Shown here: positions 55,907 to 57,086 of the stretch, one piece after another
Position numbering within the stretch: position 1 is the first letter of the stretch
Layout: every line of letters starts with the position of its first letter
The notes under the pieces: generated by a model
Database searches by the model: none
Told to the model about the DNA's origin: nothing
What the model saw: only the letters and a program-made list of their open reading frames with translations
Origin: a bacterium
GTDB lineage: Bacteria > Patescibacteriota > Minisyncoccia > UBA6257 > WO2-44-18
Direction of reading: 5' to 3'
Assembly: GCA_023244815.1 (NCBI GenBank)
Contig: JAHFLQ010000001.1
Location: 31,037 to 95,036, forward strand
Length of the DNA stretch: 64,000 nucleotides
Made by a program: the position numbers and the translations under genes

Positions 55907-56251
55907 CTATTTAACCAAAGCGGTTGCCAAGGAAACGAGTATCTGGGAAGCTAATCCCACTGCAACCGCCACCACGGCGTAGATAATCATATTTTTCGCT
56001 GTCTTAACTTTTTCTTCATCGCCAGCGGCTGTCAGATAGTTGTAGGCGGCGATGATCACAAAGATAACGGCGAGCGCGATCAAGCCGGTAAGCATCCAGT
56101 TGATCACGGTTTGGAGTATTCCCAGAATTCTTTGCACCGGGTCTCCCTGCACCGGCGCCGGCTGGACATAATTTGGCAGTTGCGCAGACGCAAACCACGG
56201 CAAAGCCATTGCCGTTACCGAACTGCCGATTGTTAAAGCTTTTCTGAACAT
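55907..56251 (-). CDS. pilin-like small membrane protein (VirB2/TrbC-like topology), paralog 1 of 3
   Basis: Signal peptide, variable region, TM1, the LTAAGDEEKVKTAKN loop, then TM2. It shares its C-terminal half with the next two genes. Confidence 0.5.
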   Translation of the reverse strand: MFRKALTIGSSVTAMALPWFASAQLPNYVQPAPVQGDPVQRILGILQTVINWMLTGLIALAVIFVIIAAYNYLTAAGDEEKVKTAKNMIIYAVVAVAVGLASQILVSLATALVK

Positions 56252-56307
56252 TTTTTATTTATTGGAATTAATCGACCTTGGTACATCTATTATTGTAGCA
56301 CAGCAGA

Positions 56308-56682
56308 TTAAACCCCGACTAATCTCTGGATAAGAGCGATAATTACCCGGAAGAGCAACATGATCGCGAGTCCGATGACGGTGTAGAAAATAGTTTTTTT
56401 ACCTCTTGCTACCTTCTCTTCATTTCCGGCGGAGGTGAGAATTTGAAAAGCCCCGAAGATTACCATAATGGTGGCTATTGCCACCGAAATGGTCAAAAGA
56501 AACCCGACTATATTATCAAGAAGTTCGGTTATGTTTGAAACACAGAGTGGATTTGGGAGACTTAACGGATCCGTACCTTGTTTGCCGCATCCTCCTGAGG
56601 GAGGGTTAGAGCCAATACCCGTTTGAGCTAGGGCTATGTTAGTAATAGCAAACGAGAAAATAGTCAACAATATTTTTTTCAT
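56308..56682 (-). CDS. pilin-like small membrane protein, paralog 2 of 3
   Basis: Signal peptide, a Cys-pair variable region (GGCGKQG...LCVSN), TM1, the LTSAGNEEKVARGKK loop, then TM2. Confidence 0.5.
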   Translation of the reverse strand: MKKILLTIFSFAITNIALAQTGIGSNPPSGGCGKQGTDPLSLPNPLCVSNITELLDNIVGFLLTISVAIATIMVIFGAFQILTSAGNEEKVARGKKTIFYTVIGLAIMLLFRVIIALIQRLVGV

Positions 56683-56684
56683 GT

Positions 56685-57086
56685 TTATTTAAATTGATAT
56701 TGGGATTGGATAAAGAAGTTGAGCGCGGTAATTATCAGCCAGGCGCCGAGGGCGATGGCGATGCCGATGACCGCGGCGGTGATTACTTTTTTGCCCTGCT
56801 CAACCCTGCTCTCGTTGCCGGCTGAAGTCATTATAACAAACCCGCCCCAGACCACCATAATTACGCCGAGGGGAATGGCAATGTAAAACAGCATATTGAT
56901 GATTTTTTTCACAAACGCGATGGCCGCGCTTAAGTCGCAGGCACCCGGTTTTCCGAGCGCGAGCGTTGGATCGCAGTTGGGTTTCAGATTAATGTCCGGT
57001 TGCGCCAAGGCGGCGCTAGAAAGTAGAAAGTAGAAAGTAGAAAGTAGAATGATCGGAAGCAGAATTTTTATTAAATTATTTTTCAT
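56685..57086 (-). CDS. pilin-like small membrane protein, paralog 3 of 3
   Basis: Signal peptide, a Cys-pair variable region (PNCDP...GACDLS), TM1, the MTSAGNESRVEQGKK loop, then TM2. The signal peptide is encoded partly by a heptanucleotide tandem repeat. Confidence 0.5.
   Translation of the reverse strand: MKNNLIKILLPIILLSTFYFLLSSAALAQPDINLKPNCDPTLALGKPGACDLSAAIAFVKKIINMLFYIAIPLGVIMVVWGGFVIMTSAGNESRVEQGKKVITAAVIGIAIALGAWLIITALNFFIQSQYQFK
57017..57051. repeat. heptanucleotide tandem repeat (TAGAAAG x4 + 1 imperfect) inside signal-peptide coding region
   Basis: tagaaag tagaaag tagaaag tagaaag tagaatg. On the coding (minus) strand this is CTTTCTA repeats encoding ...STFYFLLSS.... The unit length is not a multiple of 3. 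Confidence 0.55.

Follow-up and report, generated by a model that had tools for sequence, protein, structure and literature searches.

We describe here a small operon on the minus strand of a 64,000-nt stretch of DNA, hereafter the window, which corresponds to positions 31,037 to 95,036 of contig JAHFLQ010000001.1 (assembly GCA_023244815.1) and derives from a Patescibacteria bacterium of the candidate phyla radiation (CPR). The operon consists of a gene for a membrane-anchored solute-binding protein (SBP) followed by three tandem genes for small proteins of a type IV secretion system (T4SS) pilin family, here called PilC, PilB and PilA in their order along the strand. The elements of the locus are listed below; the type and position numbers of the pilin-like proteins are defined further on.

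57125..58414, minus strand: membrane-anchored SBP of 429 aa, first gene of the module (Pfam SBP_bac_8, 108.6 bits; SBP_bac_1, 101.4 bits)
56685..57086, minus strand: PilC, type-1 pilin-like protein of 133 aa (PF18895, 34.3 bits; position-1 orthology 27/28)
56308..56682, minus strand: PilB, type-2 pilin-like protein of 124 aa (PF18895, 44.3 bits; position-2 orthology 27/28)
55907..56251, minus strand: PilA, type-3 pilin-like protein of 114 aa (PF18895, 30.9 bits; position-3 orthology 24/28)
57017..57049, minus strand: perfect heptanucleotide coding repeat in the PilC leader (TRF score 66)
57087..57124, minus strand: AT-rich 38-nt spacer from the SBP gene to the PilC gene, with a promoter-like TTTAGA-17-TAGAAT and an imperfect 7-nt repeat
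55854..55886, no strand assigned: GC-rich hairpin (inverted repeat I4) separating the pilin operon from convergent gene 55314-55847

The preliminary description of this DNA, made from its letters alone, had recognised three minus-strand open reading frames (ORFs) of 114-133 aa with a common topology, and both their coordinates and their topology proved exact. The genes are tightly packed, with 38 nt between the SBP stop and the PilC start, 2 nt between PilC and PilB and 56 nt between PilB and PilA. Each protein carries a hydrophobic leader ending in A-x-A|Q, a region that cannot be aligned, two hydrophobic segments and a charged loop. The latter reads T-S/A-A-G-D/N-E-E/S-K/R-V..K-K/N in the window trio and represents a family-wide signature, its Gly being kept in 95% of the 263 small relatives over which column conservation was computed. 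Two of the three proteins possess Cys pairs, as had been noted before: C32/C47 in PilB, which is atypical, and C38/C50 in PilC, PilA being devoid of Cys. The AlphaFold2 model of PilB, obtained with 81 homologues (predicted local distance difference test score of 79), places helices at residues 2-20, 51-82 and 88-122 and a disordered segment at 23-31, and PilC is a hairpin of two transmembrane (TM) segments with a short tail. BLASTP comparisons related PilC to PilB (39% identity over 109 aa, E 1.4e-19), PilB to PilA (37% over 76 aa, E 2.4e-12) and PilC to PilA (30% over 47 aa, E 4.7e-6), with identities within the array ranging from 24 to 39%. Since no similarity among the three genes is detectable at the DNA level, this paralogy is both real and old.

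All three proteins passed the gathering score of the Pfam family PF18895, T4SS_pilin (26.6 bits), with which the precomputed matches on the source contigs concur, and display the arrangement typical of it, i.e. two hydrophobic helices and a T-S-[AG]-G-[DN]..K..A-K loop; the pilin assignment put forward in the preliminary description was thereby borne out by the Pfam search, whereas its suggestion of competence pilins found no support. Among NCBIfam models the best match of the three proteins was in every case NF045849, which describes a Mycoplasma pilin-like protein of integrative and conjugative elements (ICE), at 29.1, 22.3 and 14.8 bits and so below the 40-bit cut-off. A profile of 81 family members aligned by hhalign with authentic VirB2/TrbC proteins, whose genes were recovered from Ti-type plasmids by tblastn, gave a probability of 71.4% (E 3.6e-5, 74 columns) against what is a thin profile of three sequences, the alignment being co-linear and spanning the A-x-A|Q cleavage site and both helices. 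Searching the PDB sequences with the paralogue profile returned no matches. The family is large, with 53,222 representatives at 50% identity (E <= 1e-3), and relatives are already named 'pilin' or 'type IV secretion system pilin' in public sources; the nearest ones that we found belong to metagenome-assembled genomes (MAGs) labelled Parcubacteria, Jorgensenbacteria, Liptonbacteria and 'Patescibacteria group'.

Two further observations concern members of this family. Some single proteins of 450-930 aa (P0009, P0010, P0011, P0012, P0016, P0084 and P0153) string together five to eight pilin hairpin cores without intervening leaders; judged from their sequences, such 'poly-pilins' look like polytopic membrane proteins and would be hard to square with extraction into a filament. 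A different, single-copy family gene of 142-145 aa lies at position ~9815-10260 in each of four loci (L063, L064, L067 and L074), within a conserved neighbourhood of unannotated genes (c25-c27, c14_466, c28, c19_435). Of these loci L063 is labelled 'Gammaproteobacteria', L067 lies on a metagenome chromosome without a label, and the other two, L064 and L074, are from Patescibacteria-group MAGs; this gene may represent a separate system.

Earlier work has already documented tandem arrays of divergent VirB2-like pilins in this phylum, and the core idea about the trio is therefore not new. Wang et al. (2023; PMC10633639) showed that the T4SS cluster of Southlakia epibionticum contains a set of predicted pilins and that these are essential. 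Quinonero-Coronel et al. (2025; PMC12102498), searching with PF04956 and PF18895, catalogued 441 arrays, each of 2-11 pilins, from 383 assemblies; pilin identity averaged 25% and peaked at 54%, and the authors suggested host-range or antigenic versatility. Their definition of an array, at least two PF18895/PF04956 genes of low identity that are in tandem or have a single gene between them (PMC12102498), describes the three adjacent genes of the window as well. The window array resembles those of Patescibacteria such as S. epibionticum ML1 (SEML1_0006-0019) and Nanosynbacter TM7x in its PF18895 membership, its tandem, same-strand and divergent copies, the leader, the variable region with a Cys pair, the hairpin of two TM segments and the reduced monoderm chromosome that bears it. 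Unlike the published arrays, it lies outside a virB4 cluster, is headed by an SBP and consists of three positionally conserved types.

This last feature emerged from a comparison set of about 170 related loci. A genome scan seeded with the pilins yielded 78 loci, nearly all from Patescibacteria, among which a hidden Markov model (HMM) made from the three window paralogues showed same-strand arrays of 2-12 pilin genes to be the rule. Positional orthology was assessed in 29 SBP-headed three-gene arrays by the best inter-genome hit of each gene, which fell on the same position in 763 of 811 cases for position 1, 718 of 812 for position 2 and 590 of 806 for position 3. The window genes behaved alike against the 28 other arrays (27/28, 27/28 and 24/28 for positions 1, 2 and 3). 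Each position has a motif of its own. Type 1 shows C...C-x-x-C-[DH] before helix 1 together with a C-terminal tail '..PW..I.C', type 2 carries [IL]-x-N-P-L just before helix 1 (LPNPL in PilB) and type 3 lacks Cys and starts helix 1 with '..I.NW' ('..INWM' in PilA). Orthologues share about 40% identity, a value not below those of the adjacent SBP gene and the metallo-beta-lactamase-fold (MBL-fold) gene, and GyrA itself is only 59-68% identical among the genomes with positionally orthologous pilins. PilA, PilB and PilC are thus old, position-specific orthologue types and not recent variable copies. The preliminary description had termed them rapidly diverging, which holds for the N-terminal exposed stretches, unalignable between paralogues or orthologues, and fails for the rest of the proteins; its further proposal that the tandem paralogy reflects antigenic variation is not supported, given the positional types and their motifs.

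The types also obey a simple grammar. Type 1 opens 89 of 96 SBP-headed arrays, 1-2-3 is the most frequent array word (30 loci), and longer arrays multiply type 3, up to five-fold. Type 1 is nearly confined to SBP-headed arrays, and its CxxC[DH] signature occurred in none of the 106 pilins fetched from VirB4-linked Saccharibacteria arrays. In all three types the number of Cys is mostly even. In type 1 the total is even in 57 of 70 sequences, distributed over the N-terminal and tail regions as three plus one in 37 of 70, two plus none in 10 of 70, including PilC, which is thus the variant with two Cys and no tail Cys, and one plus one in 3 of 70. From this pattern we infer one local disulfide and one tether between the N- and C-terminal regions in type 1. 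Such pairing of N-terminal and tail Cys supports a topology with both termini outside. VirB2 and TrbC undergo head-to-tail cyclisation, of which the putative N-to-C disulfide tether would be functionally reminiscent.

Some type-1 pilin domains carry other modules as C-terminal fusions (L042:5721-6986, L144:7336-10962 and L007:7200-8090). The partners of these long proteins are PG_binding_1, a combination of SLT, fn3 and He_PIG (also given as SLT/fn3/Ig) and, weakly, a lysozyme-like SLT_3 domain. The outward-facing tail of type 1 is accordingly predicted to be a docking point for modules that act on the cell wall, a VirB1-like theme given the PG_binding_1 and SLT domains.

The SBP was the second element to acquire a new meaning. 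It had been described as an orphan lying directly next on the same strand; the adjacency stands, the SBP gene being 38 nt upstream of PilC, and the orphan status does not. In the genome scan, 22 of 23 other loci carried a gene of the window's SBP family right ahead of the pilin array and in the same orientation, at a distance of -7 to +670 nt; the exception is L066, where the SBP gene follows the first member of an array of 12 pilin genes. The converse search scanned metagenome contigs with the SBP; the first alignment of 24 sequences was too divergent for this locus scan and a subset of 10 served. It returned 557 relatives, and among the best 80 of these 557, one to seven pilin genes came right after the SBP in all 72 loci with at least 300 nt of downstream DNA, at gaps of -10 to +278 nt and often with a 4-nt overlap. 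The remaining 8 of the 80 loci end 125 nt or less past the SBP. The linkage persists whichever of three genes lies upstream: GyrA in the lineage of the window or, in MAGs labelled Doudna-, Berkel-, Kerfeldbacteria and others, NTP_transferase or a methyltransferase.

The window SBP has an N-terminal TM anchor and the SBP_bac_1/8 domain, and its orthologues, mutually 21-63% identical, all carry a TM anchor or, alternatively, a lipobox. Among solved structures, the window SBP is closest to the sugar-binding SBPs 5ci5, 8art, 1eu8 and GacH (E 7e-16 to 4e-12), and several W/Y/F/D/N/Q residues are invariant in the family. Pfam scans of nearly all ORFs detected no BPD_transp_1 permease and no ATP-binding cassette (ABC) ATPase in the window, and no ABC permease or ATPase was among the recurrent annotated neighbour families of about 100 SBP-headed loci. 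The SBP is a dedicated and conserved operon partner of the pilins rather than a stray transporter part. No SBP-pilin fusion occurred among 252 fetched proteins. Neither 'solute-binding' nor 'substrate-binding' is mentioned in Wang et al. (PMC10633639) or in Quinonero-Coronel et al. (PMC12102498), and we found no paper in the literature linking an SBP to these pilins. As far as we could search, the SBP-1-2-3 order, the positional orthology, the Cys parity and the leader heptamers discussed below are all undescribed.

Binding proteins with ties to T4SS or conjugation beyond nutrient import do have precedents. ChvE mediates sugar sensing for VirA and PrgZ binds the pheromone for pCF10; both have signalling roles and neither shares an operon with pilins. 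In further contrast to them, the window SBP has no neighbouring sensor kinase or Opp-type permease.

Membrane glycosyltransferases of the GT-C type (PMT family, DUF2079) stand directly after or within some of the SBP-headed arrays (L006:10628-11986, L008, L009, L045; L042:7378-9429, L071), and an NTP_transferase gene directly precedes the SBP in many other loci. These neighbours hint that the module may have to do with glycosylation or sugars.

As regards the T4SS itself, the family takes part in two classes of loci. In the second class, mostly from Saccharibacteria, the arrays have no SBP and lie beside genes for VirB4-, TrsD- and PrgI-like proteins and a 940-aa protein (U940), direct adjacency to VirB4-, TrsD- and PrgI-like genes being recorded in 12-14 Saccharibacteria-type loci. 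T4SS core genes never adjoin the SBP-headed arrays within the reach of the loci. VirB4 is reported from 2,417 of 3,035 Patescibacteria genomes (~80%), and pilins lay near virB4 in 1,135 of 1,948 assemblies (PMC12102498).

The window proteins share with Agrobacterium VirB2 and RP4 TrbC the long leader with its A-x-A|Q site, a short exposed N-terminus, two helices and a basic loop facing the cytoplasm or the lumen. They differ in that the family loop is about seven residues longer and bears an acidic-basic motif, that no VirB1, B3 or B4 gene is adjacent and that the host is monoderm. A similar comparison applies to Mbov_0395 and MMCAP2_0565, small pilin-like proteins with two TM segments encoded by Mycoplasma ICEs in wall-less or monoderm hosts; unlike these, the trio is devoid of an ICE context and its scores stay below the model cut-off.

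Taken together, we favour, with a probability of roughly 0.55, that the locus represents the minimal canonical form of a Patescibacteria-specific operon, SBP-type 1-type 2-type 3, whose pilins are assembled by a T4SS with the SBP as their partner. The initial steps that we envisage derive from sequence and comparative evidence. The pilins would be exported by Sec and cut after A-x-A, leaving in the membrane a hairpin with the variable N-terminus and the C-terminus outside and the Lys/Arg-rich T-S-A-G-[DN]-E-x-K...K loop in the cytoplasm, as in VirB2/TraA. The three subunits would be non-redundant, type 3 probably being the bulk subunit, because it is the one multiplied in other arrays, and types 1 and 2 being specialised. 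A chromosomal T4SS of the monoderm type (VirB4/TrsD/PrgI/VirB6) encoded elsewhere would then draw the pilins from the membrane, and the resulting surface filament or conduit could be used in the contact with the host bacterium. The co-transcribed SBP, placed at the same site of the envelope, would most plausibly be a carbohydrate-recognising partner, for glycans of the host or of its own wall, or else an assembly factor.

Several observations weigh against this proposal. PF04956, the TrbC/VirB2 family with a gathering score of 27.9 bits, remained just below threshold for PilB (25.2 bits), scored 17.7 bits with PilA and did not match PilC; the 71% hhalign probability is only modest; and fold searches return just generic helical hairpins, by the thousands. 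The preliminary description had stated that the window encodes no T4SS ATPase or scaffold, and the Pfam scans, covering essentially all its ORFs of at least 120 aa, agreed and revealed no relaxase either. Homologues of VirB4, TrsD, PrgI and U940 were absent from the window and from ~77 kb of the source contig, and none was found within 6 kb of any of the 80 SBP-anchored loci. Clusters of the VirB1-B2-B3-B4 type, present at the authentic VirB2 loci, were likewise not found in the window or in those ~77 kb. The proposed T4SS link of the window trio is thus inferred from homology and from other lineages. We found no experimental sighting in the literature of a pilus made of the PF18895-type family, and a 2025 review concedes to these bacteria only the 'potential to elaborate conjugative pili' (PMC12857230). 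With respect to the array grammar, the HMMs of types 1-3 were built from 29 of the arrays that they classify. Finally, the 80 metagenome loci share the S1/MBL-fold/GyrA synteny of the window and form one broad lineage, so that the 72/72 linkage partly reflects inherited gene order; the SBP-pilin linkage is persuasive because it is also found in the other synteny contexts.

The same absences could be read in favour of a T4SS-independent envelope device, in which the SBP and the hairpins would form a ring or channel for sugar ligands, for the non-ABC uptake of host nutrients, or a surface lectin complex, the name 'pilin' being then misleading. The strict coupling of SBP and pilins, unaccompanied in the window or among the recurrent annotated neighbours by any ABC permease or ATPase, would fit such a device, as would the lack of adjoining T4SS core genes at SBP-headed arrays, the near confinement of type 1 to these arrays and the proteins with five to eight fused hairpins and no intervening leaders, more polytopic-like than extractable; the invariant residues of the SBP suggest in turn a conserved ligand pocket. 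Nonetheless, the sequence homology of the family to VirB2/TrbC, the presence of the same family inside T4SS clusters, where it is essential, and the occurrence of VirB4 in some 80% of Patescibacteria genomes, frequently at a distance from the pilin genes, speak against it, and we know of no precedent for an SBP feeding a channel of two-TM hairpins. We consider this device, the main rival of the T4SS-assembled operon, unlikely.

A variable surface-antigen or host-range repertoire, produced by recent duplication and fast divergence of interchangeable major pilins, appears more doubtful still. It would account for the unalignable N-terminal stretches, for within-array identities matching the published mean, for the up to five-fold type 3 of relatives and for the mutable-looking 7-nt coding repeat in the type-1 leader. 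However, the trio is ancient and positionally orthologous across genomes whose GyrA has diverged to 59-68% identity, type-specific motifs (CxxC[DH] plus the tail Cys, NPL and NW) are kept, and three assemblies are identical at the locus. Around the locus we detected only short, chance-level matches when looking for recombination substrates such as inverted or direct repeats and silent cassettes, and the copies share no DNA similarity. For the trio this repertoire is largely refuted.

Membership in an unrelated two-helix membrane family of holins, bacteriocin immunity or phage proteins, which the preliminary description had itself raised, is very improbable, PF18895 alone passing its curated threshold and the chromosomal housekeeping context being conserved. 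A phage or holin identity was also tried and rejected on other databases, the PHROGs search giving no holin or lysis family and IMG/VR viral contigs containing no relatives.

The leader of PilC harbours a further peculiarity. Its hydrophobic core, LSTFYFLLS, is encoded by 4.7 perfect copies of the coding-strand unit TTCTACT, the tandem repeat with the top score in the whole window. In at least 10 relatives (e.g. L108:1152-1190, L113:6575-6607, L118:1446-1473 and L158:1134-1168) the leader core of type 1 (L-F/L-S-I/T-F-Y-F-L-F/L-S) is likewise encoded by period-7 tracts, 25-39 nt long and frequently built on the unit TTCTAYT; further loci have other heptamer units there. These genomes show an excess of perfect period-7 runs, with 32 in 1.88 Mb vs 6 of period 6 and 4 of period 8, and such runs are enriched in the 5' ends of pilin genes (9 of 32 within 4.3% of the DNA); heptamer repeats also occur in gyrA and intergenic DNA. 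The tract is identical in three assemblies. Those of relatives vary in length, yet all are in frame, and no out-of-frame OFF alleles of type-1 genes were found among relatives, the leaderless ones being genuinely short ORFs.

In Neisseria, CTCTT coding repeats within the leader peptide of the opa genes cause phase variation. PilC resembles opa in having a non-triplet repeat in the signal-peptide core of a surface protein gene, and differs in its unit of 7 nt vs 5 and in that neither copy-number variation nor an out-of-frame allele was seen. The PilC heptamer is thus a candidate site of phase variation, a lead rather than a result. It is tempting to speculate on a distinct and widespread Patescibacteria machine, in which a membrane-tethered sugar SBP would cooperate physically with VirB2-like hairpins, as the head of a pilus that recognises host glycans or as the gate of a hairpin-built conduit taking up host material, and whose expression would be switched by heptamer slippage in type 1. 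We regard this as rather improbable; if true, VirB2-family proteins would gain a new architecture and the CPR its first described contingency locus.

Perfect heptamers of 3-4.7 copies were also encountered inside gyrA (L095:5160-5180, L109:1789-1812, L141:4945-4977, L097:877-908 and L098:1226-1249), an unexpected location given that gyrA is essential.

Patescibacteria account for much of bacterial diversity and grow attached to other microbes, and in the one species examined so far the T4SS-like pilin arrays proved essential. The present comparison offers some handles on the function of these arrays: an array grammar that is fixed in a large part of the phylum, a binding protein as dedicated partner and an array unlinked from virB4. 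It points as well to proteins to co-purify, to the likely bulk pilin, to residues for disulfides and to a candidate ligand-binding component that possibly sets host specificity. It also corrects a tempting over-reading, i.e. that the paralogues are simply a repertoire for antigenic variation.

The non-coding sequences at the locus provided fewer signals. The promoter-like site of the SBP-PilC spacer is located at 57121-57093, and the spacer repeat was scored by TRF as ATTCTAG x4.4 with 75% matches; the number of sites found by scanning the region for promoter and terminator consensus was not above that of shuffled sequences. The sole standout was the hairpin 3' of PilA, whose predicted RNA fold (-23 kcal/mol, z = -3.6 vs shuffles) makes it a likely bidirectional terminator.

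The genomic surroundings are those of a housekeeping chromosome stretch, as established by the Pfam scans. They include genes for ClpP, FtsH, RecG, TsaD, six aminoacyl-tRNA synthetases, GlmS, TopA, DprA, a short IF-2, a XerC-like recombinase, iPGM, GyrA and S1, plus ten tRNAs, and housekeeping genes are likewise found in the 10 kb upstream of the window. Two metagenome contigs, of 98.9 and 115.9 kb, carry the locus as well.

Convergent with the pilin operon, on the plus strand, is a tandemly duplicated module made of a Band_7/SPFH gene and a gene for a 177-189 aa protein (52458-53459, 53420-53989, 54048-55295 and 55314-55847), the smaller partner having no Pfam or PHROG match. At related loci, Band_7 genes with a small uncharacterised partner recur just 3' of the pilin arrays (families f6, f14, f21, f9 and f22).

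Two observations concern the translation apparatus. A tRNA-Ile with anticodon UAU (tat) is encoded at 6189-6261 on the minus strand, in addition to a tRNA-Ile(GAU) at 45160-45233, and suggests AUA decoding without the usual lysidine-modified tRNA-Ile2. IF-2, encoded at 47158-48588 on the minus strand, has only 467-476 aa and is devoid of the long N-terminal region, which fits a reduced genome of the CPR type.

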